Shown here one piece after another: positions 11,301 to 62,487 of a stretch of 64,000 nucleotides of DNA (position 1 is its first letter; each line of letters starts with the position of its first letter). Below the pieces are notes generated by a model. The model was given only the letters and a program-made list of their open reading frames with translations. It was not told the origin of the DNA and made no database searches. The translations under genes and the position numbers were made by a program. The stretch comes from Pseudovirgaria hyperparasitica (Eukaryota), in NCBI GenBank assembly GCA_010093815.1, contig ML996587.1; one strand, written 5' to 3'.

Positions 11301-12796
11301 AGCTAGAAGATACATATTATCTATATATTCTACTATCTCTATATATTATATTCTCTATAGAAGATCTATAGTAAAGAAGAGAAAAAGAATTAGAGAGATA
11401 GTATTTTCTTATAGAATACTATATATTATTTTCTTATACTTACTTTAGTATCTAGGAATATATATCTAGATAATTCTTTTAGTAAGAAAGAACTATATAA
11501 ACTTTATAATCTATTTAGATATATATCTCTTCTATAGATTATAGATAAGTCTTATATAGTTTACTTTATTAAATATATTAGCTATATTAAGAGAGAGTAG
11601 TATTATTATATATCTCTACTTCTATATAGTCTAGATAACTTCTAGAATATATTAGATAATAGTAATTAGTAAGCTTCTAGTCTCTATCTTCTAGTTTACT
11701 AGAAGAAGATTATATTTCTATACTATAATACTTATCTTCTTTATAATTATAGTCTTAAGTATCTTACTAAGATAGAAGAGAAGGGTTATTAGTTTCTATC
11801 CTTTTAGAGAATTAGAATTCTTCTCTAGATTTAGAAGTATAATAATATAGATAGTCTAGAAACTTTAGAGATAGTATCTATTTTTAATATATATCTAGAA
11901 GATAAGACTAATAAGTAGTAGAGTTATCTATATAGTATATTTAAGGTATCTATTTAGTATTCTATCTAGTCTAGATACTTTATTATTTAGAAGTACTTTA
12001 ATAGTATTAAGTATATTCTTCTCTATAACCTTCTTAGAGATATTAATTATATCTAGATATATAGTACTATTAATATCTAATAGGTCTACTAGCTCTAGAG
12101 GGGGAAATATAACTTTATATAGAATTTCTATCTTTTCTAGACTTATAATATATATTTCTCTCTAGTATATTAGAGAAGATATTAGTAGTAGTAGTACTAG
12201 TATATCTATACTCTTAGTCTACTTTACTATATACTATAGTTCTATAGCTTATTATATATATTTAGTAGTAATTATATACTATTATTTATATTATTTATTA
12301 TAGAGAACCCTATTATAGAATTAGATAGTCTCCTTCTATTTCTTCTATACTTTAGTTATTACTATTATTAATATTAAAGAGAAAAAACTTCTTATACCCT
12401 AACGGACTAAACTAGTTAATTCGGGGTAAAACAGCGATTTACATACATCAAATGATAGAGCATACCGAGTATAATAACCTCCGACATACGTGCGTACGTA
12501 TAGCGTATAATACACGACGATACTAACGTATAGAGACACTATATATATACGCTTAAAGACTCTTCGATAACACGAGCATAGACTATATCTAATAAATACC
12601 GACACGCCGACCCCCTTTTATTAGTTAAGGGCTACCCTTAACTAATAATTATAGCGGCCTTAGGCACCGACGTACCTCGGCTTCCACTAGGTATACCCCT
12701 AATACTAGTACGGTAGAAACGGCTATATAGCGGCATATTCTAGGACGATTAAACCCCCGTCTAATAAACGACGAATAACTAAGGGCGTATAATACT

Positions 12797-14132
12797 ATAG
12801 ATAATAGAGACGGAGGGGACCCCGCCCGGGGAGACCCTTCTAGATAAGATTAACTACTAGATAGCACGTATAGAGGGGGAAGTCGAGAAGGGAGAAACGG
12901 CCCTCCTTAGTATCTTCCGGAACCTTATCTAGAATATTAGAGAGCTTACCATAGGAGTAAAACAGGCGCCGGAACTAGACCCGGAATCTAGACTAGATTA
13001 TATAGAGGCTAGCCTATAGAGGATCTAGGAGGGCCTTATCTAGGGAAAACGCCCTAGTACGTGGGCATAGATCGCCGCACCTATAAGCGGAACAGCCATA
13101 TTAGCTAAAATACTAAGGGCACCTACGGACGGGGCATATAGTATACGAGTTACTATCTAGAATAAAGAAGTACTCATATAAGTCTAGTAAGCGTCCCTAA
13201 AGGACATTATAAATAAGATTAACGAATAGAAAGGGATATAGTTAAATATAGTGGCCGCCAAACTCACCCTAGAAGGTATAGTACTAACTACTACTACTAA
13301 CACGGCCTAGTAGACTATCTTGCGCGACCCGAACGCGATTAACGACATCTTCCCTAGCGTGTCCGTCCACGTAACCACGTACCCGATATAGATATATACT
13401 ATCTCTATCTAAGGACACGTTATTAGAGAAGACGATATCGAGCGAATAGAGTAATCTAATAAACCGAAGTACCCTAGGATTAAGATCGCGAAGGCGTAGT
13501 AGAAGAACGTCTAGGGGATTAAGATAAAATTAAAAAAGTACTCTACTATAATAGTAGAGCTTAGGGACCCCGCTCTCGCCTATAGAATAACGTAGGAGGG
13601 CTTCCTAGCCGAAGGAGAGCTACTTACGGCGGAACCATAGAATAGGGCATAGGTAATGACGCAATGCTTCAACTATTAAGAATATAGACATACTAGGCAG
13701 AGGTGCTCTTAGAAGACCGCCTATAGGTAGTATAAATAGGGCTATAATACTAAGGAATGCCCTTATAAGACGCAGAGCGACGAGACGCGAGATAGGGACA
13801 TCGCTAAGTACTCTAACTACGACGGGAAACATCTATCCTAGTCGGTAACGTACACGAAACGTAAGTAGGTCGTAGAATATATTAACGCGATAAAGACAAG
13901 AGGAGTAAGATAGATATACTAAGCCATAAGGCCCTCGCTACCCTCGCCGCTATCCCTAACTTTACTTATAAATCTAGTAACTACCCCCCGAAGAGGAGAG
14001 GATAACACGTAATAGTATACTATATAGAGAAAGATAGGCCGACCCCGGGGTATACTCAAAGCTGCTACCGCGCGAGAATAATCACGCCTTAGCGCTACTA
14101 ATATATAGACTTAAACTTTCTCTAGCACCTAA
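12797..14132 (+). pseudogene. LINE ORF1 (gag-like, 3 zinc knuckles), RIP-disrupted
   Basis: De-RIPed QCFNCQEYGH....C, CGWCKQGH....C and CLNCDGKH.SW...C at ~13660-13855. The many TAA/TAG stops are consistent with CAA/CAG/TGG mutation. Start is approximate. Confidence 0.85.
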
Positions 14133-17100
14133 TGAGGGCATAACATATACTTATTATTATATAGGCGAACGTATAATATAAACGAGAAAACCAAGCGACG
14201 CTCCTAGAAGAGATAGAAGCCATAATAATAGCTATCTAGGAACCATATAAACACTACTAAACCAATAAGCTAATAACACACCTAGAATACTATACCATCC
14301 ACCCTACGGGCCCGGATAGGAGAGTTATGTTTTATATATATAAGTCGATCCCGCTCTTAGAATGGTCTTATACCGAACGTGATAACCTCCGGATAATACT
14401 ATATCTCTAGATAAGTATAGGGCCTCTCTATATCTATAATATCTATAATTAATAGCGATCGCTTACGCTAGATAATATACTCGAGGGCACCACGACGCCG
14501 GGATAACACATCCTCCTAGGCGACTTTAATCTCTACTATAGATGGTAGGGAGGCCTAGCCGTCGCGAGAGAAGAACTTAGAGTAAGGGAACTATACACAC
14601 GGTACCACGACTTCCTATACCTCCTTATACCCGTAGGGTAGATCACCTAGAGGAAACATAAATAGGACGAGAACGGGTCTACGCTCGACCTTACCCTCGC
14701 CACCGAGTACATTAGCCATAGAGTATAGTACTACCGCCCAAGCCGGATATAGACGGACTCCGACCACGAATATATAGAAACCGTAATAGACGTCTCTACT
14801 CTTAATAAATAATATAGAAAATAGCTATAGAAGGATACTAATTAGGATAAATACCTAGAGGACCTAGAATTAGTAATTCTAGACCCCTCTATAGTCGACG
14901 TATCCAACGGCCTAGCCATAGATAAGGCCGTGTAAGTCCTCCTTTAAGTATACTAAGCCATGAGAGATAAACACGTACTATACTAAATATATAGATCCCT
15001 AGAAGCGAGGGGTATACCTTAAATACGAGAGTATAGAAGAGACGCCCGTAGACTATATATATATATATACTATATCTAGACGACCGAGGCCTAGGAAGAG
15101 TAGAAGGAAGTAGTATAATATCGTAATAGGGCCCTCCGTAATAAATAATAAAAATAATAGCGTATGATTACTAATAAACACACACGGTAAGCCGTAGGGC
15201 TATAGTGTATAGTAAAGTAGGCTAAGGGTATAGACGCGCCGACACCGCCGCTACTAATACCTCCCCTAATATACTAAGAGAGAATATACTCTATAAGCCC
15301 GGAGAAGACGGAGATCTTATATAAAGTTATGTTCCCCCTCCCGGAGCTAGTAGACCTATTAGATATTAATAATACTAAATATCTAGATATAATCGATATC
15401 CCCTAAGAGGTTACCGAGGAGAATATACTCGACGCTATTAAAGTACTCCCGAATAATAAGGCACCCGGACTAGATAGGATACTAAATAGATGCCTTAAAC
15501 GCACTATACTAGCTACCCTACCGCTTATTAGTTATATATTTTAAGTATATATTAAGAACGGATACCACCCCTAAAGCTTCCGGGCCGCCTATACTATTAT
15601 ACTTCTAAAACTAGGGAAGAACCCTAGCTCCCCAAAAGGATAGAGGCTAATCGCCCTCCTCTTCTATCTTAGGAAGATACTAGAGGCTACGATTACAAAG
15701 AAGATAAGCGCCGTAGTATAGGAATATAACCTCCTCCTAGTAAACTAGAAGGCGAAGACTAGAAGCTCTCTAATTACCGCTATCTAATATATCCTCGAAG
15801 TCGTCTAGACCGTATAGAAGTAGGGACGTATAGTAACGCTACTCTCCCTTAACATGGCCGGCGCATTTAATAAAGTAAACCACACGAGACTTATCTATAA
15901 CTTACGGAAGAGGCGTATACCCGTGTAGATTACGCGGTTTATATAGTCCTTCCTCGCTAAAAGAGTTACCTAGATATACATCTCTAGATATCGAAGTAAG
16001 TACGAGAAGACGGCTTACGGCATCCTATAAGGAAGTACTATCTCTCTAATCCTCTTCCTCTTCTTTACTATAGACCTTCTCTAGAGAATATAATATATAG
16101 AGGTAGTAGGATACGTAGACGATACATACCTTCTAGCCATTAATAATAATACTAGCCAAATATATAGACGACTCGAATAAGACCATAGAAGATATATCTA
16201 ATAGGCAAAGCGCTACGGAGCAAAGTTCGCCCCTAAAAAGTACTAACTTATATACTTTATTAACCGCCGTAGGAAATGGGCTACTAGGGAAGGTAAGCGA
16301 CGCCCTAGAATAGACGCCTTCGACGAACCGCCGACATAAAGTATACGCGTACTTAGCGTTATAATCGATAATAAGCTTAAATAGGGACCATAGGTAGTAT
16401 ATACCGTTTCTAGGGCCCTCTAGATAGAAGCTACTATATAACGGATTATAGCCTCCACGTAGAGAACCGCCCGGGATAAGGTACGCTAGCTATATATATC
16501 TATAGTACGACCCGCCTTCACGTACGGACACGAGTGCTAGTATACGGCCCTTATATAGACTAGGCGAATAAAGCTCGAATCTATATAGAACCGTATACTC
16601 CGTCTTATATTAGGCGTATATAAAGCTACTAATATAGTACTACTACGACGCGAGATAGACGTTATAAGTATATATAACTTCTACTAGATATAGAGGGTAG
16701 TATACTTTACTAAATAATAAGCATAGGAACGTATAGAAAATATAGAATATACCTTCGCCGCGCTACGCGTGCGAGTTAGCGTATACTACTAAGTACTCTT
16801 ATATATAGGCCGGACTCGACTATGGTATAAGTGCCCGATAGAAATAGACTTAAACTAAGTAGTATAAGAGATTAAGAATAACCTAGATACCCTTCTAGAC
16901 TAATAGAGTCTTTAAGAGCTCGGATAAAGTATACGGTTATAGATCTAAGATAAGTAGAAAGAGACACTCCGGGCCTAGTGGGCCTCCTAGTAGAATAGAT
17001 ACCTAGAGTAGATCCGAGGACCATAGAAGGAGCTAAGTAAATAGATATATAAAGGGCTTATAAAGGCCTAGATATCTATACTTCTCTAAGCCCGAACGGG

Positions 17101-17455
17101 CGCTATAGAACTTCTATACTACCTCTATAAGAGAGGTATCCCTAACGTGTCTCTATAGTATAAGGCGTGCGGCCGGAGAGGTATAATACGCTACTATCTT
17201 ATAATATACCCCGATCTTCACACGTAAAGGCAGAAGCTTATCCACACGATAAGAACCTCTAATATTATATGATAGCTTAATAAGTACCCTAAGGATATCT
17301 CCTAATAGATACTTATATATCTACTACTCCTCTAGTACTAGTAGACCTAGAAATATATACTAGAAGAGACCCGGTATACGCTAGTAGTAACCTAATATAT
17401 ACTGGAAGAACCCCGGGAGAACCCTAATTATTAGTTAAGGGTAGCCCTTAACTAA
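14132..17455 (+). pseudogene. LINE ORF2 (AP endonuclease + reverse transcriptase), RIP-disrupted
   Basis: ATG at 14132. APE motifs QANV, AIQEP, LLGDFNLHH, STLDLT, DSDH. RT motifs KAPGPDG, WRPIALL, AFDKV, GIPQGS.ISPILF, GY(A/V)DD (~16109-16123). C-terminal CxxC..H...C at ~17160-17210. End is approximate. Confidence 0.9.
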
Positions 17456-19961
17456 TAACCTCCGTACCTATACGTACTACCTAAGGGTAAAATAATAGTA
17501 ATATAGGCTATAGGCTAATAGGCGTACTCTATAGCTATATACTTAAGACGAAATAGAGGTTTAACGAGATATAGTTATAGATATAAGGAAGTTTTTCCCT
17601 ATAGGGTTTCTTCTTATATAGTGGCTTAGACTAGAGGAGGCATAGGCCTATAGAGTACTACTCTATCTAGTTATATAATATTATTATTATTATTATTATA
17701 CTTTAGTTATCTAGATATAATATATATATATATATATATATAGTCTCTAGGCTTCTTATCTATATTCTTATATTTAAGGTATACCCTTTATATCTAGAGA
17801 CTTATATATTTAATATAGTATATATTTATCTCTAGTATTCTAGTAGACTTAAAGAAGAACTTATATAGCTCTATCTATAGCTAGACTATTAGATATATTA
17901 ACTATAGAGAGATCTAGAATTACTAATTCTAGATTCTCTATATACTTTTTCTAGTTAGTATTCTTTTAGAGCTATCTCCCTTATTATTTATTAGATATAG
18001 ATATATCTTCTATAGTTTCTATATACTTATAGTTAGAGTCTATCTATATCTTACTTAGATAGTAGTATTATACTCTATAGCTTATATATTTAGTAGTAAG
18101 GGTAAGGTTAAGTATAGATCCTTTCTTATTCTATTTATATTTCTTCTATATAACTTTTCTAATAGATATAAGAAGGTATAGAAGGTCTTAGTATTATATA
18201 TATTATTCTTTTACTCTAAGTTCTTTTCTTATAACTATTAGATCTCTCTACTATCTATAGTAAAGATTAAAGTTATCTAGTAGAATATATTATTCTAATA
18301 TTATAATACTTTCTAGTATAGTATCTAGTATAAGTAATTCTTTCTAGTTATAAATATTATAGATATAGAGAGACTCTAAATTTATCTAGAGATATAATAT
18401 TATTTAGAGATTATCTTATTTTATATAGAACTACTCTAAGAGTAGAATTAATTTATATATATAGAATAGAACTCTTCTATCTAGGCCTAGAAGATAGATA
18501 GTATAGTACTCTAGATATATTATTAGTTTATTAGTTTAGTTATATTTATATAGTTTCTAGATAGCTATTATTATAGTATCTATCTCTTCTAAGAGTATTA
18601 TCTAGTTTTCTTATTTATATTATATATTTATCTATATAATAATAAGTATATCTTAGCTTCTTATTAGATACTAGAAAATACTTAGATCTATATACTAGTA
18701 GTATTAAGGTATAATTATCTCTATATAGAAGCTATTTTAAGGATATCCCTAGATTAGTCTATCTTTCTCTACTTACTACTCTAAAGAGTTTTTAAGTATA
18801 TATATATAATATCTCTATATATTAGTACTATTATATATTATATACTAGGTATATATATATTAGAAGTTATTATACCTAGTATACTCTATTAATTAATATA
18901 TATAGATTACTATATTACTCTAAATTAACTAGTTTTAGTCTCTTAGAGTATAGAAAGTTTTTCTATCTAATTAAAATTATAAGAAAATAAGTCTTTAAGT
19001 TAAAAAAAAGTATATAGCTATACTAGAGATAACTATACCCTATATAATAGATATACTCTTTATTAGTATTAAGGTATAGAATATAAGTAAATCGTTAGTT
19101 AATTAGATTATAAGAACTAGATAGTATAGTAGTAAAGATTCTAAACTACTATTTACTTATAACTCTATATCTATATATTATCTCTATATATATAGAAAGA
19201 CTAGAGTTATTATATACTAGTATATATCTATTCTATAACTACTAAGTAGAGTTATAAGTATATAGAATAAATAGTTATAGAGTAAGAGACTAGATAAAAG
19301 ATTATATAGATATATTTTTAATATTTAATAGAAGAATCCTTCTATTACTAAATCTATATTATAAGTATATAATTTATAGTTTTAGATTAATAGATCAAAT
19401 AATAGAAAATATAGATATATTTCTAATATTTAATAGAATAATAACTCTAGAAGTACTAGAAATACTTAATAAGAAGTAGAAGAACTCTAGAATCTATTTA
19501 GAATAATACTAGAAGTACTAGAAAGTCTAAAAGTATTAGAAGTATTATTTAGTCTCTAATATAGATTATATATTATATAGAAATTATAATAGAAGATTAT
19601 ATAAGAGTTTCTATATCTATAGCTTTATCTTATATATTATAGCTTTAATAAGAGAAGATAAAGTTATTAGAGTACTACTCTATTCTATATAATATAGATT
19701 TTTATTATACTTAATATTATCTACTATAAGTAATTAGTTAGAATTTATCTAATAGTATAATTAACTATTTTATTTATATAATTTAACTTAATCTATTATA
19801 TATAATCTCTATACTAATTTCTCTATTCTATATATATATCTATGAATATCTTATCTTATCTACTATATATTACTATAAGTACACGTGTTTTGTCTTATCG
19901 TGTTGCTTGGTATATCACCTACCTTCAGTTTTCTCTTCACCACCTGACCACCTATCTGCCA

Positions 19962-21590
19962 ATGGCATCTCCTCCAAGTTCTCCACCACTGGCTATATTA
20001 CCGCAGCGGCCCTCTAACAAACGTCAACGCTCCGGTGAAGTTACCGACTTCTTCTCTAGTGATCCTGCGCCCGTCTTCTCCTCAGATGACTGGCAAGATG
20101 CGTCGATAGAGCAGTATGAAGCACCGCGGAGGAAGAGAACATTCAGGGGCCCATGGTGGAAAAGCTGCAAGAGATGGGAGCCTGCAACTATGCTGACATC
20201 AGAATCCCATGTGATGTCCCTAGCAAGGAACCTTGACAGCGGTGTATGGATAGACAACGATGATAGCATTGCGTTATCGTCCTCTTTATCGACTCTACTT
20301 AACGGCCCTACTACTACCGATACCTCCTATCAATTGACATTTTGTCCTGATTGGCAGCAAAAATACCCAGCGCCATTACTTTCACAGGCTGAGCTGCAGG
20401 CTCAAGGATTAGTCGAAAGTTGCCTCGAGCAAGGCACGCAATATGTCGACATGAGGTATGTATGGTCTTCAAACCATGGTCATAGGATTCTGATTTCAAG
20501 CAGCAACTTGGGCTTGGAAAAATTAGATGGGAGCATAATCCAGCCGATTAGGGCTTTCAGTACTGTTCCCATGGCATGCGACCGCGACTTCCGACCACAA
20601 CTTAAGATCCTATTGTCAATGAACTCTCTTCAAACTTTGCCGAAAGAAATCTGGGAGCTAAATCATATCGTTCACCTCGGTTTACGTCAAAACAGATTAG
20701 AGACCTTATCCCCCAACATAGCAAAGCTCGTAGATCTACAGTCCCTCGACATCACTGGAAATAAAATCCGCTGGCTTCCATGGGAGCTTCTATCATTGAT
20801 CACCCCGTCGAGGAGCCTGGCGATGTTTCACGTGGAGCACGGAAATCCCCTACTCATGCCATTCGAAGGCTTGCCCGAGTTCCCATCATGTATACGTGAA
20901 CTAGCCATAGGCCACCATCAAGATTTTGTACAAACCAAGCCCGAGACCAATTCCGGCCACGCAACTGAGATGCAGAGGTGGCTTTGCAGAATCGGTGAGA
21001 CAATCCATGCAGGCAAATTATATGGTGAGGGTTTATCTAACAGCCACTGTATACCCTCAAAGCCGTGGCTCGTAGGATGCTCGGAAATGGCCCGCTTTAG
21101 TAGCGATGGTACACTCGCTAACGGTTCACCAATTGCTCCTTCACTCGTACCTCTAGAACAGAGATCATTAAAGGCGTATTTGGTGGACGATCTGCCCCAG
21201 CCACAACGAATATCTTGTAGTCGTGTGGGCTCTCTTTTTGAGCTCTCACTTCGAAGAGTAACAGCGTTAATATCTACAGAGCAACTTCGGAAATATGTAC
21301 CAGATCTCCCAGAAGGGCCCTTCCAGCGTGCTCTTACAGAGGCTGAACACGTTCAAGCTGACGGAGGTCGTACTTGTTCTGTTTGTGGCCAATTGTACAT
21401 CCTTCCTCGAGCAGAATGGATGGAATTTTGGCATGTTCATCGCTCTGGAGCTACGGCTGGCATCAACGGCCATCTTCTCCCATTTCTCCGAAGAGCTTGT
21501 AGTTGGCGCTGCGGATACACCGCCTTCTGTAATATAAGGAGTGCATATGGTAGATACGCCGCTAAGTGTACTATAAATTCATTTCCATAA
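19962..21590 (+). CDS. Leucine-rich repeat protein with C-terminal BC/SOCS-box-like and Cys-rich (CxxC...CSWxC) region, LRRC58-like architecture; exons 19962-20455 and 20504-21590, ~526 aa
   Basis: Unmutated GC-balanced island. LRRs LSMNSLQTLPKEI, LGLRQNRLETLSPNI, LDITGNKIRWLPWEL. Intron GTATGT..CTGAT..CAG at 20456-20503, whose removal restores VDMSNLGL. The upstream ATG at 19842 lies in RIP-like AT-rich DNA, so 19962 is preferred. Confidence 0.85.
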   Translation: MASPPSSPPLAILPQRPSNKRQRSGEVTDFFSSDPAPVFSSDDWQDASIEQYEAPRRKRTFRGPWWKSCKRWEPATMLTSESHVMSLARNLDSGVWIDNDDSIALSSSLSTLLNGPTTTDTSYQLTFCPDWQQKYPAPLLSQAELQAQGLVESCLEQGTQYVDMRYVWSSNHGHRILISSSNLGLEKLDGSIIQPIRAFSTVPMACDRDFRPQLKILLSMNSLQTLPKEIWELNHIVHLGLRQNRLETLSPNIAKLVDLQSLDITGNKIRWLPWELLSLITPSRSLAMFHVEHGNPLLMPFEGLPEFPSCIRELAIGHHQDFVQTKPETNSGHATEMQRWLCRIGETIHAGKLYGEGLSNSHCIPSKPWLVGCSEMARFSSDGTLANGSPIAPSLVPLEQRSLKAYLVDDLPQPQRISCSRVGSLFELSLRRVTALISTEQLRKYVPDLPEGPFQRALTEAEHVQADGGRTCSVCGQLYILPRAEWMEFWHVHRSGATAGINGHLLPFLRRACSWRCGYTAFCNIRSAYGRYAAKCTINSFP

Positions 21591-21987: not shown

Positions 21988-22938
21988 TAGCTAGATAGTA
22001 TAGTAGTAGTATACTATATTACTAGAAGCGTTTATTATCTAATATTATAGGTTTAAATTCTATAATAGCTACCTTTTTATATACTAGTTTTTATATACTC
22101 TACTAAAGATATATAGAGTTAAGTAAGTATATAATATAAAGATTACTATTATATAATTACTTAGTTCTAAGTAATAGTTAGATAATATAGTAGTATTATA
22201 TAATAAAATTATCTAACTTAGCTATCTATCTATACTACCTTAAGTAGTAGAGCTAAGTCTAGAGTAGCTAGATCTAAAAAATCCTACTTAGCTTAAATTA
22301 TAGAATATATATATAGAGCCTTATCTATCTCTATAGAGTCTTATCTACTCTAATCTAGCTTAGCTTATACTTACTCTAGCTTAGTAACTATAAAATAGAT
22401 AGTAGTATCTAATTAAGTATTCTATCTACTAATAGATAATTATATAGTTCTAAAGAATAATTTCTAAATTTAGTCTAGCTAGGGTTAGTACTAAGGCACG
22501 GACCTATTAGATATATACCCTCTCTAGTATTAGTTATCTTAATTAATAACTAATATCTAGCGTAAAGCTATATTTCTATAGATAGAAAAAACCCGGTAGT
22601 ATAGAAATAATAGACTAGGCCTAGCCTAGTAATCTATCTAATTATAGAAGAGATAATACTTACTATAGTTAGTTAGGGTATTATTAAGAGCTAATACTAA
22701 TATAGTAATAAAAAAGTCTAATTTTAAAAAGAATAAGAAGTAAGTTTATTATCTAATAGAATTTAAGAACTTAGACTAGACTAGGTTAGATTAGTAATAG
22801 GGTCTAGTTAGAGAGCTAATTATAGAAGGTTTTCTTATATATATAGTAGCTTAGACTAGAGAAGGTCTATACCTATAGAATATATATATAGCTATATATA
22901 TAGTTCTTCCTAGTTAAATACTAATATTATTATATTAT
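21988..22938 (+). mobile_element. Second non-LTR family (family B): ~950-bp insertion sharing only the 3'-terminal motif and tail with the main LINE
   Basis: 14-bp TSD TATAGATCTATAAT at 21974-21987 and 22939-22952; 3' motif TAGTAGCTTAGACTAGAGAAGG as in the LINE 3' end; (ATT)n-like tail; second copy at 63401-64000 (minus). Confidence 0.75.
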
Positions 22939-23851
22939 TATAGATCTATAATCTATATTACTATTATTTTATTCTTAGATAATATATATAGAGTATAGAG
23001 ATTATTAGCTAAGGGTTACCCTTAGCTAATAATTAGAGTTCTTCTAGAGTTCTTCTAGTATATACTAGAGTCTATCTAGTATATATCTAGTTTCTTCTAG
23101 TATATATATTAAGATCTACTAGTACTAAGAGAGTAGAAGATATATAAGTATTTACTAGATAATTTTCTTAAAGTACTTATTTAGCTAATATATAATATTA
23201 GAGGTTCTTATTATAGAATAAGTATTTATCTTTATATATAGAGATCTAGATATATTATAAGATAGTATTATATTATATATCTCTAATTATATACTTTATA
23301 CTATAGAGATATATCTAGAATATCTCTCTAGTATAGAAAGTATAAAAGTTCTATAGCTTCTATTTAGGCTTAGAGAAGAATAGATATTTAGACTTTTATA
23401 AGCTCTTTATATATCTATTTACTTAGTTTCTTCTATAGTTCTTAAATCTACTCTAAATATCTATTCTATTAGAATATCTAATAGACTTAAAGAGCTTCTT
23501 TCTACTTATTCTAGATCTATAATTATATAGTCTATATAAGTTTTTAAGGGTTCTACTAGTATAAGAAGGTATCTAGATTATCTTTAATCTCTTATATAAT
23601 CTAACTTAAGTATATCTCTATTAGATACTTATATTATATTTAAATCTAGTCTATATATAGAAGTACTTAATAGTAGATACTAACTTATATATATAGTATA
23701 GTAAAAGTATATTCTATATATTCTATATATTTCTATACTTATTATTTAATAAAGTATATTACCCTCTATATCTAGTAGAAGTTCTATATATTTATTATAT
23801 TTATCTTATATTATAGTAGTACTATATTAGTAGCTTTATATATACTAGATA

Positions 23852-23926
23852 GGCTACGAAGCCTTATAAACCGCGTCCACGTTATCGTAGCTAGGCAATG
23901 CCTCTATAGAGGTAGTAAGAGATTCG
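23852..23926 (+). ncRNA. HDV/CPEB3-like self-cleaving ribozyme (RIP-mutated copy A)
   Basis: P1 GGCTACG/CGTAGCT with G1-U wobble; P2 (C)GAACC/GGTTCG (intact in copy B); P3-L3 GCG-TCCACGT-TAT; J1/4 (G>A)G; P4 CCTC-loop-GAGG; J4/2 GTAAGA, inferred GCAAGA/GCGAGA before RIP. G1 is the first base after the TSD. Confidence 0.8.
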
Positions 23927-25038
23927 GAGCGGCGTTAATAGTAACCTAGTCGTCGCTAGATAGATGGTTAAAGAGTTTTCGCGGAGCGTCTACCTTACTA
24001 AACCACGCTAATATAACCTAGCTAGGGAAGTATATACTTCTATTCTATCCCTAATAAACGCGTTAAGAGAAGTTCACGAGAATAAAGGGATAAGAAAACC
24101 ATCTAACGCGCTACTACTATGTCGAAAGTAGGCCTAAATCTATTTTACTAACTAGGTAGAGGAAGCGGAGATTCTAGTAGCGTGATAGGATACCTTAAGG
24201 CTTAAACGGCTCTAGGAACGTAAGGAACACGTCGAGGGTAACTAAGAAACTACTACTAGAAGAACTTATTAAAGCTAACTCTTCTATAGTATTAAACTAC
24301 GTTTATTAAGCTATCTAGTACGACTACTAGTAGTATAACTCTATTAAGACCTTTCGCTCGATACGAGATACTACTTTACTACTAATAGGTAGAGTAGCTC
24401 CCGCGTACGAGAGATGTTATAGTCTACTATAGAAGGTGGGATACTAGAGTATATAGATAATAGTATATAGATATAGATAGGAGGCAGCTATAGGGACCCT
24501 TTAAGAGTAGTAGAAATAAGTCGGGTTAGTAGGAAGAGAATACCTAAGTCGCCTAGGCGTATATACGTAAGGGATTTAGAGGATACTCTCCTATAAGATA
24601 TAGTTAGCCTATTATAGAGAGATCCTTATAGGTAACACGAAACTAAAAAGTAGTAATACTTAAAGGCGGGGCGTGGTATATAGTAGTAACTACTAGCTCT
24701 AAGGACCTTACCTCTTTAATAGGCTCTAACCCTTAATATATCTAGAAGTAGATAGAATTATATTCTAGCTAGAGAGACTACTATATAGCCTAAGAGAACG
24801 GATATATATATTAATTTATAAAGAGATAGAACGTATCGCCTATAAGGCATATACGCTAGTATTATAAGTTTAAGGAGTAAACCTTATAGTTACCTAGCTA
24901 GGAGAGGCTTCGGTTACCTCTCCTAGTAGAGCCGGAGGTATAAGCCTAGAGGGAATAAGATAAGGCGAAAACAGGAGTAGGGCCTAATGGTATAGGGCAC
25001 GTCGAACCTATAGGAGTTATCTAACTCCGAACTAGAGG
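23852..25038 (+). ncRNA. ~1.19-kb non-coding structured RNA 'head', copy A
   Basis: Colinear with 60558-61762 (minus) with identical termini. Differences include non-RIP substitutions and frame-breaking indels clustered in hairpin loops. No protein motif is recognisable. Confidence 0.7.
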
Positions 25039-28000
25039 CCTAACGGACCAAACTGGTTAATTCGGGGTAAAACAGCGATTTACATACATTAAACAATAGA
25101 GTACACCGAGTATAACAACCTCTAACACACGTGCGTACATGTAGCGTATAATACACGATAATACCGACGTATAGAGATACTATATATATACGCTCGAAGA
25201 CTCTTTAATAATATAAGTATAGACTATATCTAATAAACGCTAATACGCTAACCCCCTTTTATTAGTTAAGGGCTACCCTTAACTAATAACTATAGCGGCC
25301 TTAGGTATCGTAATACCCCGGTATACGCCGGATATACCCCTACTAGTATAGTAGAAACAGCTATATAGCGATATTAATATAGATAGCTAGATATCTATCT
25401 AAAATATAGGAACTAACTAAGGGTGCGAAGCGCTATAGATAACCTAGACTAAGGGGACCCTAAGAGAGAAGACCCTCCTAGATAAAATTAAATACTAGAT
25501 AATATATATAGAGAGGGACGCCGAGGAGGGAAAGAAGACCCTCCTTTATATATTCTGAGACCTTATCCGGAATCTAAGAGAAATTATAGAGGAAGAAAGG
25601 AAGTCGTTACGAGAGGAACCTAGTAGTAGACTTAACTAAATAGAAGCTAGTCTACGGAGAATCTAGAAAGAGCTATTCTAAGGTAAGCGCCCTAACACGT
25701 AGGCTTAGATTATAGTAACACCTAGAGCTACTATACTAAGGACTACTAGGACTATAGATAGAGTATATAGTATATATATCGTAATCTAGGATAAGGACAC
25801 GCTAGCGTAGGTCTAATAGGTATCCCTAAAGGAAATTATAAATAAGATTAATAAATAGAAAGGAATATAGTCGAGTATTATAGCTACTAAAGTTACGCTA
25901 GGTAGGGTAGTACTTACTACTATAACGAATACTACGTAGTAAAACATCTCGCGAGATCTAAACGTGATAGGTAGTATCTTCCCCGGCGCGTCTATTAGGG
26001 TAGCTATATATCTAATTATAGTATATATAGTACCCGTATAGGGATAGGCTATTAGAGTAGAGAATATTACGTGTATAGAATAATCTAACACGCGAAAATA
26101 TCTAGGGATTAAGATTATAAAAGCGTAGTAGAAGAATCTATAGACGATTAAGACGACGGCGAAAAAACACTCTACTATAATTATAGAGCTCTAAGACCCC
26201 GCCCTTATATAATATATTATATAGAAGGGATTCCTAATAGAAGGAGAGCTCCTTATAGCCGAGCTATAGGATAGAGTATAGATAATAATATAGTGCTTTA
26301 ACTATTAAGGGTATAGATATACTATATAAAGGTACTTATAGAAGACTAAGTACGGATAGTACCGTAGGGACTATACTATCTAGAAGTGCCCTCACGAACC
26401 GCAAGGAGATAGACTAAGAAATAGAGATATAGTATAGTATTTAAACTACGACGGGAAATACCCGTTATAGTCATTAATATATATAAAATATAAATAGGTT
26501 ATAGAATATATTCGCACGATAAAAGCGAGAGGCGTAAGATAGTTATAGAATATAATACCTACCACGAGCCCTTCCTTTATAATACCCCTAACCTCCTCTC
26601 TAGAAGGTAGTTAGGTAGGATAGTAGACTATTCTAAAGATAATAGAATAACTAAAAGGCATAGTTAAAGCCGCTACCGCGCGAGGATAGTCGCCCCTCTA
26701 AGGAATAAGTATATAGGTATATATACTCTCTAGTACCTAATAAGGGACTAGAATATACTCCGAATTATATAGATAAATATATAATATAAAAGAGAGAACT
26801 AGGCGACGCTTCTCAAAGAGACTAGGGCTATAATACTTACTATCTAGGAACCCTATAAATACTACTAGACGAGTAAACTAACTATACACCCCGGATACTA
26901 TACTATACACCCTCTAGGACTAGAAAGACGAGTCCTCTTCTATATTTATAGGTTAATACTACTCTTATTATAGTTATATACTAAGCGCGATAACCTTAGA
27001 ATAATACTATACCTATAAATAGATATAGGCCCTCTATATATATATAATATATATAACTAATAACGTGTACTTATACTAGACGAGATGCTCGAGGGTACTA
27101 CGGAACTAGGGTAACATATCCTCCTAGAAGACTTTAACCTCTACTACTAATAGTAGGGAGGCCTAGCCGTAGTTAGAGAAGAACTTAGAGTAAGGGAACT
27201 ACGTACCCGCTACCACGACTTTCTATACCTACTTATACCTATAGAATAAGTTATATAGAAAAAACATAAATAGGACGAAGACGGGTCTACGCTTAACCTT
27301 ACCTTCGCTACGAAGTATATTAGTTACCGGATCTAATACTACCGCCTAGGCTAGGTATAGACGGATTCCGACTATAAATATATAGAAACTATAATAAACG
27401 TGTATACCCTAAATAAATAACGGGGACGATAGATATAGAAGGACACCGACTAGGAAAAGTACCTAAAGGACCTAGAATCGGCGATTCTAGATCCCTCTAT
27501 AGTCGATATATCTAACGACCTAGCCATAGACTAGGCCGTATAGACACTCCTATAAATATACTAGAATATAAGAAATAAATATATACTATACCGAATATAC
27601 CGGCCCCCGGAAGTAAAGGGGATTCCTTAAGTATAGGAAAGTAGATAAGACGTCCGAAGGCTATATAGACGCGTATACTATATAAGAATACCCGAGTCAT
27701 AGAAAGAATAGAAGGAAGTAATATAATAACGTAATAAAGTCCTCTATAATAAAAGGCGTAAATAGTAGCGTATAATTACTAGTTAATAGATATAATATAT
27801 AATAGGGCTATGGTATATAGCGAAATAGGCTAAGGGCGTAGATACTCCGATACCCCTACTACTTATACCTCCCCTAATATATTAGGGGAGAATATACTCC
27901 ACGGGCCTTAAGAAAACTAAGGCCCTATAGAAGGCCATGTTCCCTCTCCTAGAACTAGTAGACCTATTAGATGTTTACGGCGCTAAATACCTATACGTAG

Positions 28001-30286
28001 TAGATATCCCCAAAGAAGTTACGGAGGAGGACATACTTAATATTATTAAGACACTCCTAAATGATAAAGCACCCGGACTAGATGGAATTCTAAATTAATA
28101 CCTAAAAAGTACTATAAAAGCGACCCTACCGCTTATTACTTATATATTCTAAGTATACGTCACGTAGGGGTACCACCCCTAGAGCTTCTAAGTCGCCTAT
28201 ACTATTATACTCCCGAAACTAGAAAAGAGCCCTAACTCTCTAAAGGGATAGAGACTAATCGCTCTTCTCTTCTACCTAGGTAAGATACTAGAGACTATAA
28301 TAGTAAAGAAGATAAGTACCGCGGTATAGGAATATAATCTCCTCCCTCTAAACTAGAAGATAAAGGTAGATAGCTCTCTAATAATAGCTATCTAATATAT
28401 TATTAAAGTCGTCTAGGCCGCATAGAAATAGGGACGGGTAGTATCGCTTCTCTCCCTCGATATGGCCGGAGCGTTTAATAAGGTAAACTATATAAGACTT
28501 ATTCATAACCTCCGGATAAGACGAATACTAGAATAGATTATATACTTTATATAGTTATTCCTTATAGGAAGAATAACTTAGATATATATCTTTAGATACT
28601 AGAGCGAATATAAAGAGACGGTATATAGTATCCTATAAGGGAGCACCATCTCTCTAATTCTATTCCTCTTCTTTACGGTAGACCTTCTTTAAGAAATAAA
28701 GTATATAGAGGTAGTTGGATACGCTAATAATATATACCTTCTAGCTATCGATAATAATACTAACCGAACGTATAGACGACTAGAATAGGACTATAAGAGG
28801 TGTCTCTAGTGGGTAAAACGCTACGGAGCAAAGTTCGCCCTAGAGAAATACTAGCTTATATACTTTATTAATCGTTAAGGGAAATAGATAACTAGGGAAG
28901 GCGAACGACGCCTCTAAATTAACGCATTTAACGAACTACTAGTATAAAGCATGTACACGCTTAGAGTTATACTAGATAGTAAGCTTAAATAGGGACTATA
29001 AGTAGTATACGCCGTCTCTAGGGCTCTCCGGGTAGAAGCCGCTATATAATAGATTATAGTCTCTATATAGGGAACCGCCCGGGATAAGGCACGCTAGCTA
29101 TATATATCTATAGTACGACCCGCCTTTACGTATAGACACGAGTACTAGTATACGGCCCTTATATAGACTAGGTAAATAAAGCTTAAATCTATATAGAACC
29201 GTATACTCCGTCTTATATTAGGTGTATATAAAGCTACTAATACGGTGCTACTACGACACGAGATAGACGTTATAAGTATATATAACTTCTACTAGATATA
29301 GAGGGTAGTATACTTTACTAAATAATAAGTATAGGAATATATAGGAAACGTAGAATATACTTTCGCCGTACTACGTGTATAAATTAGTATATATTACCAC
29401 GCACTTCTATATATAGACTAGAATCGAATACGGTATAGGTACTTAATAGAAGCCGACTCTAGCTAAGTAGTATAAGAAGTCCGAGATAACCCGGACGCTC
29501 TTCTAGACTAGTAGAGCCTTTAAGAACTTATAAAAAATATACGGTTATAGACTTAAGATAAGTAGAAAGAGGTACTCTATACCTACTAGACCTCCTAGTA
29601 GAATAGGTACCTAGAGTAGATTTAAGGGCTATAGAAGAAACTAAGTAAATAGATATATAAAGGGCTAACGAAAGCCTAAGTATCTATACTCATCTAAGCC
29701 CGAACGGGCGCTATAGAACTTCTATACTATATCTATAAGAGAGGCGTTCCTAATACCTCCCTATAGTATAAGGTATACGGCCGGAGAGATATAATATACT
29801 ACTATCTAGCTATATACCCTAACCTCTATATATAACGGTAATAGCTTATCTATATTATAAAGACTTTAGATATTATATAATAGCTTAATAAGTACCCTAA
29901 GGACGTCTCCTAATAGATACTTATATATCTACTACTCCTCTAGTACTAGTAGACCTAGAAATATATACTAGAAGAGACCCGGTATACGCTAGTAGTAACC
30001 CGATATATACCGGAAGAACCCCGGGAGAACCCCGATTATTAGTTAAGGGTAGCCCTTAACTAATAACCTCCGCATCTACACGTACTACCTAAGGGTAAAA
30101 TAATAGTAATATAGGCTATAGGCTAATAGGCGTACCCTATAGCTATATACTTAAGACGAAATAGAGGTTTAATAAGATGTAGTTATAGATATAAGGAAGT
30201 TTTTCTCTATAGGGTTTCTTCTTATATAGTAGCTTAGACTAGAGGAGGCATAGGCCTATAGAGTACTACTCTACCTAGTTATATAA

Positions 30287-30321
<35 letters not shown>
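25039..30321 (+). mobile_element. Near-full-length Tad1-like LINE (copy L2, related subfamily; lacks ~17 nt of the family 5' end)
   Basis: Colinear with 12398-17696; zinc knuckles ~26290-26480, GDFN ~27127, SDH ~27365, KAPG ~28067, GYADD ~28717; (ATT)n tail. Confidence 0.95.
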
Positions 30322-30330
<9 letters not shown>

Positions 30331-31059
30331 CTAGATATAAGATAGAGTATATGGTTCTATATAGATTTAAGCTTTATTGGCTAGCTTATATAAGAGCTAT
30401 ATACTAGTACTTATATCTATATATAAAGGCGAGTTATACTATAGAGATATATAGCTAGTATATCTTATTCTAGATAGTTCTTTATATAGAGACTATAATC
30501 TAATATATAGTAGCTTCTATCTTAAGGGCTCTAGATATAATATATATAATCTATAGTCTCTATTTAAGTTTATTATTAATTATTATACTAAGTATATATA
30601 TACTCTATATTAGTAGTTTAGAGAAGATATCTAATCTAGAGTATTATTTATTTTCTCTAGTAGTCTATCTTCTATAATAGTTAATAAAGTATATAAGTTA
30701 GTATTTTTTAGAGATAAACTTTACTCTATAGTATTTTATCTACTAGATATATATCTTATAGTTATATTTAAGATATTTATATATTAGACTAGTATAGAAG
30801 GCTATATCTATAGCTCTATATATAAATATCTCTAGCTTAATTATATAGTATATTTATATACTTAAAAAGAATATTTCTCTACTTATTTTAATATATATAT
30901 ATACTCTCTATTACTAATATTTAACTATATTAGCTTTTCTTTACGTTTATAGGCTTCCATAGACATTAATTAATAGACTTAGTTATTAAAGAATCGATTA
31001 TAAGTATTATATAGACCCGTTCTATTATATAAGAGAACTAATAAGTAGTTATAAGGTTA

Positions 31060-43641: not shown

Positions 43642-44184
43642 TGCCAGGAGTCTACGACAATAGGCGACCAAACTCAACGCGTTGAGTGTCCAGAGGCGCG
43701 ATTTTGTGGTGATGACAAAATGACCACATCCGTCGGTCGTAGCTTCAGTTAATTAGCTGCCGCGAGGTTTCTCCGCTTGCGAGCGTTGATACGAATACGA
43801 AAATATGCACATATGAAAGGTGAGTGGGACAAGAAGAGTTAGATTTGCATGCTCTGTGTTGCCTAGAAAATTACTACATTTATCGGAACATTGCCCTGTT
43901 TATGGAATAATGTAACGATGGCCATGTTTGGCCATTCCCTAGAATGTGCATTCGCCAGGCCCCACTTTTTTCGGTCATGCGTCTGTTGACATCGGAGCGT
44001 ACCAAATATCACAGCAAAACTACATGGCAACGACCACGGTGTCGATTCGTAGTATTCCTGCCACGCCATGCAGATGTCACGTCAAAATATGCCAAACGCC
44101 ATAGCGCCCCTAACATTAAGAGACATGATACACATAATCCTTCTGGAGCATTGTATTAGCCGGCATTCAAACAGCCTCACTCCT

Positions 44185-45357
44185 TCACGCTGCCTGTCTT
44201 CCTGCTACGTACTTGGATATGTCATTCCGTGCGAAGGAGAACGGGCTCTTGGTCATTTCTGGGCTTCTCGGAGATATCGGGACAGCGAAAAGACCGTCTT
44301 CTTTGTCGTCGTCGGCTTTGTCATCTAATGCCGACGAATATTGGAGTATGCCCCGTGACTCCCATGCCGGTGCCACCGCAAATGCATCGAGCGACCCGAT
44401 GCCTATATTATGTTGCTGTTGTTGTTGTGCCAGAATTTCTGCAGGCGGTCCTTGCGTTGAGACTTTACGGCGGAATTGAAGCTTTGTGGTGACTTGGCTA
44501 GGCATGGCACCCTTGAATGTCGAGAATGAGGACACAGCGACATCAGAGGATTCGGGTGATAAAGTGTTAGGCTCGTAGGAGGTAATAGACATGCCTCCCG
44601 GGGAGTGATGTTCTTTATCTGTGGTGCTCAACTTCAAGCCCTTCAGCTTCTCCATCAAACGCCCACCACCAGGACTCTTTGGGCTTCCTGGACTCAACGG
44701 CGCCGCAGAATTGGTGCCGGCTCCAGTCGTGATGGTCAGGCCGCTTGGGCGTGCGCTAACACCAAAGTTCTGCTCGATCCATTCCTTCTCTTGCAGTGCC
44801 ATTGTCAAGCCGATCCCTTCAACATTGTTCTGGCTTTCTGTATCAATCTCACGCTGTAAAGCCTGTAGCCTCTTCTTAGCCCATATTGTGTGCAGAACCC
44901 CCTTCTTTCCAGCTTGTCTCGCACTGGCGCCAAGTTCTGGTGGGAAGATCGCAGGTAATGGGTTTGTGCGCCAATATGTCTCACCCTTGGTTAGTATGAC
45001 CATACCAGGGACTGGAACGCCCGGCGGCAGGAGAAAGTACATCCTATGGAATTCACCTGCGCGTTCTTCAGGGGGAATGAGCGTTGGCGTGTCGTCGACG
45101 GGGAGAACATGTGTCTTGCTCTCCCAGCTAATCTGCCAGGAGCCCAAGATTGTGCGGGTCGAAACATCGTCCTCCCACTCGATCATCAAGATCTTGGTAC
45201 CTTCTTTGGACAGGCCGGGTTCAAACTCAAAGCGTGCTAACGCATTCGCATTTGAGAGACTTGGGGATTTGACTTCATCTTTGCCTGGTGCGAATTGTGC
45301 GGTATCTGCAGCACTGAAAATGGCATTGGAGGACTGACATGAGTTCGTAGCGGCCAT
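44185..45357 (-). CDS. Hypothetical fungal protein, 390 aa (Ser/Pro-rich C-terminal half with SP motifs)
   Basis: Long uninterrupted ORF in the unmutated island; globular-looking N-terminal part (GTKILMIEWED, NPLPAIFPPELG, KKGVLHTIWAKKRL) followed by a coiled segment and a low-complexity tail. Confidence 0.85.
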   Translation of the reverse strand: MAATNSCQSSNAIFSAADTAQFAPGKDEVKSPSLSNANALARFEFEPGLSKEGTKILMIEWEDDVSTRTILGSWQISWESKTHVLPVDDTPTLIPPEERAGEFHRMYFLLPPGVPVPGMVILTKGETYWRTNPLPAIFPPELGASARQAGKKGVLHTIWAKKRLQALQREIDTESQNNVEGIGLTMALQEKEWIEQNFGVSARPSGLTITTGAGTNSAAPLSPGSPKSPGGGRLMEKLKGLKLSTTDKEHHSPGGMSITSYEPNTLSPESSDVAVSSFSTFKGAMPSQVTTKLQFRRKVSTQGPPAEILAQQQQQHNIGIGSLDAFAVAPAWESRGILQYSSALDDKADDDKEDGLFAVPISPRSPEMTKSPFSFARNDISKYVAGRQAA

Positions 45358-59701: not shown

Positions 59702-60557
59702 CTTAGAGTCTACCCTTAATAGTATTTTTTTTAATTTTACCTTAATTCTCTATATATTTTTCTACTATACCTTTATAATCTTATTTCTAGGGTACTTCTA
59801 GTTATTAGATTACTCTATTTACTTAATATTATTATTTCTAATAATATAGCTCTAGACGGGGATAGTATATATCTATATTAGATATATATTTATATAGATA
59901 AATATACTAGAGAAGATATTATTTATTATATTTAGATTATTAGAGATAGTCTACTAGACTATATTAGTAGTAGTAGTTAGTACTATACCTTCTAGAGTAA
60001 GTTTAGCTATAACTATATTTAACTATATTTCTCTCTAGTTATTAATTTTATTAACAATATTCTTTAGAGATACTTACTAGACCTATATAAGTATTATCTT
60101 ATTCTAGATAGTAACTTATACGCTATACGCTTCCCCCTTAGATATTCTTAGTATTTAAGTTATTCTAGTTATACTATCTATTAGTATAATAATAATAATA
60201 ATAATATTATATAACTAGGTAGAGTAGTACTCTATAGGCCTATGCCTTCTCTAGTCTAAGCCACTATATAAGAAGAAACCCTATAGGGAAAAACTTCCTT
60301 ATATCTATAACTATATCTCGTTAAACCTCTATTTCGTCTTAAGTATATAGCTATAGGGTACGCCTATTAGCCTATAGCCTATATTACCGTTATTTTACCC
60401 TTAGGTAGCACGTGTAGATACGGAGGTTATTAGTTAAGGGCTGCCCTCGACTAATAATCGGGGTTCTCCCGGGGTTCTTCCGGTATATATCGGGTTGCTA
60501 CCGGCGTATACCGGGTCTCTTCCAATATATATTTCCGGGTCCACTAGTACTAGAGGA

Positions 60558-61762
60558 CCTCTAGTTCGAAGTCGGATGACTCCTATAGGTTCGACGTGCC
60601 CTATACCATTAGGCCCTACTCCTATTTTCGCCTTATCTTATCCCCTTTAGGCTTATACCTCCGGCTCTACTAGAAGAGGGGCACGACGCCTTATCTAGCT
60701 AGGAAACTATAAGGTTTACTCCTTAAACTTATATTACTAGCGTACGTGCCTAGCGACACGTTCTATCTCTTTATAAATTAATACGCGTATCCGTTCTCTC
60801 GGGCTATATAGTAGTCTCCCTAGCTAGGACGTAATCCCGTCTACTTCTAGATATACTAAAGGTTAGAGTCTATTAAAGGGGTAAGGTCCTTAGAGCTAGT
60901 AGTTACTACTATATACTACGCCCCGCCTTTAAGTATAGCTACTATCTGGTTTCGTGTTACCTATAAGGATCTCTCTATAATAGGCCGACCGTGTCTTATA
61001 GACGAGTATTCTTTAAATCCTATACGTGTATACTCGTGTGACGCGCCTAGGCGACTTAAGTATCCTCTATCTACTAACCTAACTTATTTCTACTACTTTT
61101 TAATGGGTCCCTATAGCCGCCTCTTACCTATATCCGTATACTATTATCTATATATACTAGCGCCCTACCTTCTATAGTAGACTATAATATCTCTCGTACG
61201 TAGAAGCTACTCTATCTATCCTAGACCTAAGTAGTATTCTATATTAAGCGAAAGGTCTTAATAGAGTCGCGCTACTAGTGGTCGCGCTAGGCGTCTTAAT
61301 AAACGTAGTTTAATACTATAGAAGAGTTAGCCTTAATAAGTTTATCCGTAGTAGTTTATAGTTACCCTCGACGTGATTTCTCGCTAATCCTTACGTACCT
61401 AGAGCTATTTAAGCCTCGAGGTATCCTATCGCGCTACTAGGACTTCCGCTTTCTCTATCTATATAGTAAGGTAGATTTAGGCCTGCTTTTAATATAGTAG
61501 TAGCGCGTTAGGTGGTTTTCTTATCCCGGTATCCTCATAGACTCCTCTTAACGCGTTAATTAAGAATAGGATAGAAGTATATACTATCCTAGCTGGTTTA
61601 TTACGGTATAGTCCCTATAGAGTAACGCGTTACGAAAACTCTATAACTATCTACCTAGCGACGATAAGGTCGCTATTAACGCCGCTCCGAACCTCTTACT
61701 ACCTCCGAAGAGGCATTACCTAGCTATAATAATATAGACGCGGTTCGTAAGACTTCGTAGCC
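60558..61762 (-). ncRNA. ~1.2-kb non-coding structured RNA 'head', copy B
   Basis: Reverse-complement homolog of 23852-25038 with the same first (GGCTACGAAG) and last (GAACTAGAGG) nucleotides. Confidence 0.7.
61688..61762 (-). ncRNA. HDV/CPEB3-like self-cleaving ribozyme (RIP-mutated copy B)
   Basis: Minus strand GGCTACG-AAGTCTTA-CGAACC-GCG-TCTATAT-TAT-TATAGCT-AG-GTAATG-CCTC-TTCG-GAGG-TAGTAAGA-GGTTCG. P2 CGAACC/GGTTCG is intact and P4 is capped by C(UUCG)G. Confidence 0.8.
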
Positions 61763-62487
61763 TATCTATTAGTATAGTAACTTATATTTATATACTAGAG
61801 TATTTTTTCTAGATAAGGTCTACTTAGATCTTTAATAGACTAGTCTTAATCTAGTCTAGTCTAGATTCTAGATTTAACTCTAGCGTCTACTTTACTTCTA
61901 TAGTAAGTTCTTAGATATTTTAGACTAGACTCTAGAAGATACTAAGAAGAATAGTCTCTCTCTTCTTAACTTCTCTCTCTATATATATTATCTAGTAGTT
62001 AATCTTATTTATAAGATTTTCTTTAAGTAGAGTTCTCTCTATTTTAGTTATCTATAATATTTTATATTTTTAGCTATTTTTTATTTTCTAGATAGATATT
62101 TAGTTATTCTAGAATATACTACTATATAGGTATTTCTATTATATAGATAGTAGAGATATATCTAGTAGAGACTAGAGTATATTAGTATCTAGAGCTACTA
62201 TAATTATTAGTTAAGAACTATTCTTAACTAATAAAAGAAAATTAGTATATTAGTATTTCTTATTAGTAGTCTATACTTGTATCTATAAAGAGCTTTTAAG
62301 TATATATATATATATATAGTATCTCTATATATTAGTATTATTATATAATATATACTATATATATATATTAGAAGTTATTATACTTAGTATACTCTATTAA
62401 TTAATATATATAGATTACTATATTACCCTAAATTAACTAGTTTTAGTCTCTTAGAGTATAAGAAGTTTTTTTAGTTTATTACTTATA

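Follow-up and report, generated by a model that had tools for sequence, protein, structure and literature searches.

HDV-like ribozymes are established in the non-LTR retrotransposons of animals and trypanosomatids, where they serve to cut the element RNA from co-transcripts (PMC6765202, PMC3185411). In trypanosomatids, the L1TcRz ribozyme (Pr77) of the L1Tc/ingi clade makes up the first ~77 nt of an APE-type LINE, also heads internally deleted derivatives, is found in dispersed insertions flanked by target-site duplications (TSDs) and cuts at +1; its P1.1 is down to one pair and its P2 is partly dispensable (PMC3185411, PMC4035085). In animals, HDV-like ribozymes lie at the 5' end of the R2 and baggins/RTE elements, and the R2-type ribozymes, which free the element RNA from a co-transcript, have a P1 of 6-7 bp, a P2 that is often mismatched, a J1/4 of 0-2 nt and a variable P4 (PMC3774820, PMC6765202). 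The CPEB3 and genomic HDV ribozymes, which are intronic or viral and not transposon leaders, have a common helix order with a G1.U pair closing P1, a 3-bp P3, an L3 of 7 nt that supplies a C to P1.1 and has U...G (reverse wobble), and a J4/2 of 4 nt with RA at its end (PMC4836649, PMC4227795, PMC6326823). A published descriptor fixes the G1-Y pair, two P1.1 C-G pairs, the L3 letters U/C/C/C/G and CRRA in J4/2 (PMC6326823), whereas P1.1 is a single pair in CPEB3 and L1Tc. For HDV and CPEB3 mutants at the catalytic C, PMC9901934 reports no high-activity variants, even with second-site changes, and descriptor searches use motifs with A, G or U in place of this C as their inactive decoys (PMC10879173).

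We describe here a leader of 75 nt at the 5' end of an APE-type LINE of Pseudovirgaria hyperparasitica, analysed within a stretch of 64,000 nt of contig ML996587.1 (hereafter, the window). It is like L1TcRz in its position and length, in heading an internally deleted derivative, in its dispersed, TSD-flanked insertions, in its cut site at +1, which is here a predicted one, and in a P1.1 that is down to one pair. L1TcRz, however, was shown to cleave and has the catalytic C, whereas the fungal leader is C-less and RIP-damaged, and is likened to it by architecture. The place of the fold at the 5' end of the element is also that found in R2 and baggins/RTE, but R2, unlike the fungal LINE, is site-specific in rDNA and has a restriction-like endonuclease; R2 also keeps five positions rigidly, the catalytic C among them, and this C is absent from the fungal leader. 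Of the features of CPEB3 and HDV given above, the helix order, the G1.U pair, the L3 letters and the J4/2 ending can be recognised in the leader, P3 reaches 3 bp only with a G that most other copies carry, and C57/C75 and the C-G pair adjoining P1 are found in those ribozymes but not here. Our literature search, of partial coverage, found no HDV-like ribozyme heading a fungal LINE, and an earlier description may exist. The leader would be of the same kind as the R2/L1Tc-type 5' ribozymes, and what would be new is the host group and the RIP decay.

Results

Host element and insertion boundaries

An APE-type non-LTR retrotransposon, degraded by RIP, was delimited in the window as two insertions, copy 1 and copy 2, with the following features.

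23852..~30322, + strand: copy 1, full-length non-LTR retrotransposon (self-BLAST, RVT_1, TSDs, RIP indices); its 3' end is uncertain by ~3 nt (tail versus TSD)
30287..30322, + strand: (ATT)n 3' tail of copy 1
23840..23851, unstranded: 5' TSD of copy 1, single in the paralogous empty sites
30326..30337, unstranded: 3' TSD of copy 1
60186..61762, - strand: copy 2, internally deleted, in which the first 1.2 kb adjoin the final ~370 nt plus tail
61763..61773, unstranded: TSD of copy 2 next to its 5' end
60175..60185, unstranded: TSD of copy 2 next to its 3' end

The TSD of copy 1 has the core atatactagata (12 nt), or up to 15 nt when tail letters are counted, and that of copy 2, which reads actaatagata on the - strand, is 11-14 nt long. 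GGCTACG follows the TSD directly as the start of both copies; the placing of G1 immediately after the TSD, at 23852 and 61762, in the preliminary description of this DNA is thus borne out by the sequence and the TSDs. The target of copy 1 is present once in the uninterrupted host-repeat paralogues at 10805-10871 and 48796-48862, and contigs that continue past 23849 into uninterrupted host sequence set the 5' boundary of copy 1 at 23851/23852. In a contig from a further copy (record 11 of X2, one of the sequencing runs considered below) the match begins exactly at 23852 and is preceded by 32 unlike letters; the predicted cleavage site is probably the 5' end of a third insertion too.

Self-comparison of the window aligned 23839-25038 with 61776-60558 in opposite orientation (82.6%, 1232 columns), 25039-30359 with 12398-17749 (76.1%) and 29936-30307 with 60557-60186 (94.4%). 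An RVT_1 domain was found in copy 1 at ~28240-28860 (E=2.8e-8), in one of three frames of a translation that had stops as X. Seven database homologues showed 20-26% identity, and five of the seven had an APE-type endonuclease (PF03372/PF14529) plus PF00078; the endonuclease domain was not detected in the RIPed copy 1 translation itself. At least five further 3' ends of this LINE family lie in the window, which is what a LINE should leave. By its reverse transcriptase, its TSDs, its 3' repeat tail and these further 3' ends, the copy 1 family is assigned to the APE-type LINEs, the APE part of the assignment coming via the homologues.

The sequence that copy 1 interrupts is an older, inverted copy, either of this LINE or of a related one (22740-23851 and 30338-~30800; 72-76% identity), which the self-comparison also returned as 29222-30121 versus 23845-22946. 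Copy 3 (12360-17699), whose TSD, actttagttat, differs from those of copies 1 and 2, also interrupts a LINE fragment of inverted orientation (10570-12348 and 17737-18696), and nesting of LINE in LINE is the rule here. The internal deletion of copy 2 begins no more than about 3 nt from CCTAACGG, where copy 3 starts matching copy 1 (the stretches concerned are 25033-25036 in copy 1, 60556-60560 in copy 2 and 12360-12400 around copy 3), and 38 unrelated AT-rich letters precede this point in copy 3. This suggests a module boundary, with a 1.2-kb 5' module bearing the ribozyme-like leader and a core of ~5.3 kb; a recurrent breakpoint is the alternative. The TSDs before the two 5' ends are alike (23837-23851 versus 61763-61776), with ...TATAC..TAGATA directly before G1, a likeness of copies 1 and 2 that may stem from preferred targets or simply from AT-rich, RIPed surroundings.

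RIP damage in the window

Over the 5' 1.2 kb of both copies the observed/expected ratio was 0.14 for CpA+TpG and 1.9-2.0 for TpA, and in three gene-island ORFs the corresponding values were 1.0-1.2 and 0.6-0.9. For the first 300 nt of copy 1 the CpA+TpG ratio was 0.22. RIP is near-saturating in both 5' modules, from which ~86% of the expected CpA/TpG are missing. Because of this near-saturation, and of scars shared between copies, a capture-recapture estimate of doubly mutated CpA sites, which relies on independence, was dropped.

Across the window, a few gene islands of normal GC are set among a patchwork of AT-rich repeats, many 2-kb bins having a GC of 0.11-0.26. Intact ORFs are found in these islands between the RIPed repeats, at 41974-43677 (-), 19842-21590 (+) and 44185-45357 (-); one of the three encodes a ubiquitin hydrolase with zf-UBP and UCH domains (E 3.9e-15 and 2.7e-25), another has sub-threshold leucine-rich-repeat matches and one, of 390 aa, is without a Pfam match. 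A further inverted LINE copy (52053-47728) is bordered at its 5' end by a run of N, at ~52054-52150, which is either an assembly gap or withheld sequence.

Architecture of the leader

The nested double pseudoknot order P1-J1/2-P2-P3-L3-P3'-P1'-P1.1-P4-J4/2-P2' can be drawn in nt 1-75, with these parts.

23852..23926, + strand: HDV-like, ribozyme-like leader of copy 1, nt 1-75; P1 7/7, P2 4/6, P3 2/3
61688..61762, - strand: HDV-like, ribozyme-like leader of copy 2, nt 1-75; more heavily RIPed, L3 with 3 transitions
23852..23858, + strand: P1 5' strand, pairing with 23886-23892; G1 is the 5' end of the predicted cleavage product
23867..23872, + strand: P2 5' strand, TAAACC (CGAACC in copy 2), pairing with 23921-23926
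23873..23885, + strand: P3 (GCG / TAT) around L3 TCCACGT (23876-23882)
23886..23892, + strand: P1 3' strand
23893..23894, + strand: J1/4, AG (canonical GG for P1.1); C26-G43 can pair, C27 and A42 cannot
23895..23916, + strand: P4 hairpin of 8 pairs, with an AA bulge and a 4-nt loop; 16/16 cells paired
23917..23920, + strand: J4/2, AAGA (canonical CRRA), its first letter being A in both copies
23921..23926, + strand: P2 3' strand

The structure tested consisted of P1 (nt 1-7/35-41), P2 (16-21/70-75), P3 (22-24/32-34), P1.1 (26-27/42-43) and P4 (44-53/58-65). Copies 1 and 2 differ at 13 of the 75 positions, by 12 transitions and one A/T transversion (nt 55). In copy 1, besides the counts listed above, the P4 core is paired 4/4 and the mismatched P2 positions are nt 16, 17 and 71; copy 2 has 6/7 pairs in P1, 6/6 in P2, 2/3 in P3 and 4/4 in the P4 core. 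P1 and P2 are both intact in neither single copy. The merged sequence proposed earlier was regenerated by keeping C/G wherever either copy has C/G, and in it the helices are P1 7/7, P2 6/6 and P3 2/3. In both window copies a G1.U41 wobble closes P1 and the two pairs of P3 are G.U. Taken over the two natural copies, the HDV-order structure paired 46/52 cells (88.5%), whereas 22.9-48.1% of the cells were paired when the partner strands were slid by 1-3 columns as a control. These cells, together with the G1.U pair closing P1, uphold the HDV/CPEB3-like helix order and spacing that had been claimed for this sequence. Compensatory changes were not found, 0 pairs being changed on both sides in this comparison of two sequences only.

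Core letters

Copy 1 carries 11 of the 13 letters that the descriptor fixes (PMC6326823). They include all five of those in L3, which is TCCACGT, as well as G1.U41, the second J1/4 G and the R-R-A of J4/2; the L3 of copy 2, TCTATAT, shows three RIP-type transitions. For CPEB3, the letters G17, G19, U20, U21, C22, A23, G25 and U26 are named in PMC4836649. The CPEB3 P3/L3 string quoted in the preliminary description agrees with them, and 6 of the 7 letters of the copy 1 L3 are common to CPEB3.

The two descriptor misses of copy 1 are A42 (23893, first J1/4 letter) and A66 (23917, general-acid position). One P1.1 pair is possible, C26-G43, which is not the one adjoining P1, and C27 faces A42 in copy 1. 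Cytosine is absent from nt 62-69 in copy 1 and copy 2. Both missing letters, the J1/4 G and the J4/2 C, sit in TpA, a RIP product. However, the closure of P4 leaves a J4/2 of exactly 4 nt, so that the general-acid position is A66 (23917), and since C>A is not a RIP change, RIP cannot yield this A66 from C in the canonical 4-nt CRRA register. U65 (23916) takes the general-acid position only in a 5-nt J4/2, and there CpA>TpA would fit.

Other positions for the catalytic C were tried and rejected. The register C74-G75-G76-A77 with P2' at nt 78-85 either needs a P2 5' strand that is non-contiguous with P3 or consumes P3, destroying L3, and the choice of C45 or C50-53 leaves no P2. Our search of the literature for an adenine at the general-acid position yielded nothing usable.

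Chance tests, model searches and predicted folds

When the merged 110 nt were dinucleotide-shuffled 20,000 times, 344 of the shuffles contained P1 anchored at nt 1 and 78 contained P1 with a nested-pseudoknot P2 anchored in the same way. The anchored 5' half with a relaxed L3 motif appeared in 14/200,000 Markov sequences when P3 was 3/3 and in 52/200,000 when P3 was at least 2/3. At fixed places the L3 letters have p ~1.1e-3 and P3 ~0.06, and the product of the component probabilities, a rough figure that assumes independence, is ~1e-6 for the 5' half per anchored end.

A strict core, defined as P3 of at least 2/3, L3 UCCNCGN and an abutting 7-bp P1, had a single occurrence in 127,780 window positions, at 23852, which is the first base of the element. 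Of 300 simulated windows, 131 contained the strict core, unanchored, by chance (mean 0.52), so that finding the core somewhere in 64 kb means nothing. Because it is so common by chance, the weight rests on its anchoring at the first base of the insertion and on the 3' half in register, that is, P4, RRA, the second J1/4 G and the 6-bp P2 in copy 2. The improbable part is a P1 that starts, in sense, on the first base of the retrotransposon, with the 3' half following in register.

A purine/pyrimidine-tolerant pattern of nt 1-54 recovered exactly both copies in the window and had 0 matches in 100 shuffles, and metagenome scans with such patterns returned 0 loci. The Rfam search over the 64 kb gave 0 matches at gathering; at E <= 10 there was one unrelated match around copy 1 and three matches around copy 2, with no HDV-type family among them, the Rfam HDV-type models being narrow and the window copies RIP-damaged. 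The MFE folds were not better than those of shuffles (z = -0.50, copy 1, and -1.58); they contained P4 and, in copy 1, a P1 extended into P3'/L3. As the leader is drawn as a pseudoknot, MFE z-scores and nearest-neighbour energies are uninformative for it. A tRNA-derived or Pol III head was also considered and rejected, ARAGORN giving 0 genes at either copy and the likeness to A/B boxes being weak by eye.

Other copies of the leader

Contigs from four runs of one species (X1 to X4) were matched to 23752-24151 at >=80% likeness, a single contig coming from X3 and none from X4. Variation at >=5% of contig depth is confined, in nt 1-75, to three sites, namely 23884 A>G (9456.9/10365.2 of depth in X1, 12 contigs, and 6209.4/6973.1 in X2, 8 contigs; ~90%), 23900 G>A (856.5/16939.9 in X1) and 23906 A>T (8262.8/13226.6 in X1). 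The G carried at 23884 by ~90% of the depth restores the C23-G33 pair, and P3 is therefore 3/3 in most copies, as G.U/C-G/G.U, with two wobbles even in the best of them. This agrees with the earlier proposal of a RIP-mutated P3 3' strand for its middle base, but the flanking U stay U and the strand does not become CGC.

The loss of the J1/4 G and of the J4/2 C had likewise been ascribed to RIP in the preliminary description, which looked to a consensus of many copies for their return and took a consensus without GG in J1/4 or C in J4/2 as speaking against the ribozyme. The consensus lacks both letters: neither a G at 23893 nor a C at 23916/23917 reached 5% of contig depth (~13,000-17,000 in X1). 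The contigs carry the RIP scars of copy 1, so this multi-copy test is weak and the bulk consensus is not a de-RIPed ancestor. Variation at >=5% of depth affects just 9 of 300 sites, none of them a P2 mismatch (nt 16, 17 and 71). The shared scars therefore point to a common RIPed source and/or to selection by the 80% threshold. CpA/TpG at nt 27-28, 45-46 and 48-49 were kept in >=95% of the X1 depth and, as nt 45 and nt 65 share one context, the contrast between them is not accounted for by RIP acting at particular sites. The sole trace of a less-RIPed form of nt 8-17 was the clipped end of a contig, before 23869.

At 23752-23850, in the host repeat, the summed contig depth was 10-100x that of the LINE leader (up to ~355,000 versus 3,500-17,000 in X1); full 5' ends are greatly outnumbered by this part of the older LINE family.

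Discussion

The reading that we prefer, with a rough probability of 0.65, is that nt 1-75 represent the dead relic of an HDV-like 5'-processing ribozyme. We count in its favour how well both halves, anchored as they are, fit letter by letter, the P3 pair regained in other copies, the position of the deviant letters in TpA and the established occurrence of such ribozymes at +1 of LINEs (PMC6765202, PMC3774820, PMC3185411). Counted against it are the lack of the catalytic C in any copy, an A66 that RIP does not explain in the canonical register, a weak P1.1 and P3, and the absence of a model match and of covariation. The ancestral element would have been transcribed within a longer read-through or host transcript; its leader would have folded as a nested double pseudoknot (P1/P2 and P3/P1.1, with P4) and would have cut the bond 5' of G1, leaving a 5'-OH on the element RNA. 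The cut RNA would then have been the template for target-primed reverse transcription, and we propose that full-length insertions begin exactly at G1 for this reason. We infer past cleavage, as well as a former first P1.1 G and a former general-acid C, the last of which would require that U65 was once a C in a 5-nt J4/2. Neither window copy is predicted from its sequence to be active as a canonical ribozyme, since both are without the catalytic C, copy 1 is without two P2 pairs, and copy 2 is also without one P1 pair and three L3 letters.

It is unlikely, in our judgement, that the resemblance is due to chance and that the leader is an ordinary structured 5' UTR, with a P1 hairpin of up to 11 bp and P4, which never was a ribozyme. 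The uniform 5' end at G1 would in that case be set by an internal promoter starting at +1. Internal promoters with the transcription start at +1 are found in many LINEs. Such an origin by chance would be in keeping with the want of a catalytic C and of a J1/4 GG in every copy examined, with the absence of an Rfam HDV-type match, with a copy 1 MFE fold that consists of an extended P1 hairpin plus P4 at a z of only -0.50, and with P1 and P2 not being intact together in either raw copy; the core motif arises readily in simulated windows, and loose descriptors yield many false positives (PMC10879173). The single core match in the window, however, has its start precisely on the element's first base, where the rough product of ~1e-6 per anchored end concerns the 5' half alone, and the 3' half fits as well, with P4 right after J1/4, RRA abutting P2' and a 6-bp P2 in copy 2. 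The P3 repair that the ribozyme fold predicts, moreover, is present in other copies.

We regard as very unlikely that the HDV-like fold functions although the canonical cytosine is missing, whether as a very slow or unconventional cleaver or in a non-cleaving role, for which an internal promoter, a cap-independent translation start and a binding site for the element protein are candidates. Most genomic copies would then derive from a source that was already without the C and the first P1.1 G, and yet gave insertions starting at G1, the fold being kept for another job or for non-cytosine cleavage; this would explain that many copies share the C-less form and nevertheless begin at G1. Most of the contig depth does have A42, U65 and A66 with intact P1, P3 (G33), L3 and RRA, and another flank precedes a start at 23852 in at least one additional copy (X2 record 11), but descent from one RIP-scarred source explains this shared state equally, copy 1 being heavily RIPed. 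The 77 nt of L1Tc serve as promoter and as ribozyme (PMC3185411) and R2 ribozymes have been proposed as IRES and protein-binding sites (PMC6765202), whereas mutants at the catalytic C include no high-activity variants (PMC9901934). A P2 of 4/6 in copy 1, with its three mismatched positions invariant at the 5% level in the contigs, also argues against a fold that is being maintained.

The preferred reading, that of a decayed ribozyme, concerns an inferred ancestor; the extant copies lack the catalytic C and are not to be annotated as active ribozymes. If this reading is true, the strategy of 5'-processing by a ribozyme extends to the LINEs of ascomycetes, and RIP disables the ribozyme along with the ORFs of the element. 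The P3-L3-P1' core and the TSD-anchored 5' ends would then together provide a search seed for intact relatives in less RIP-prone fungi.
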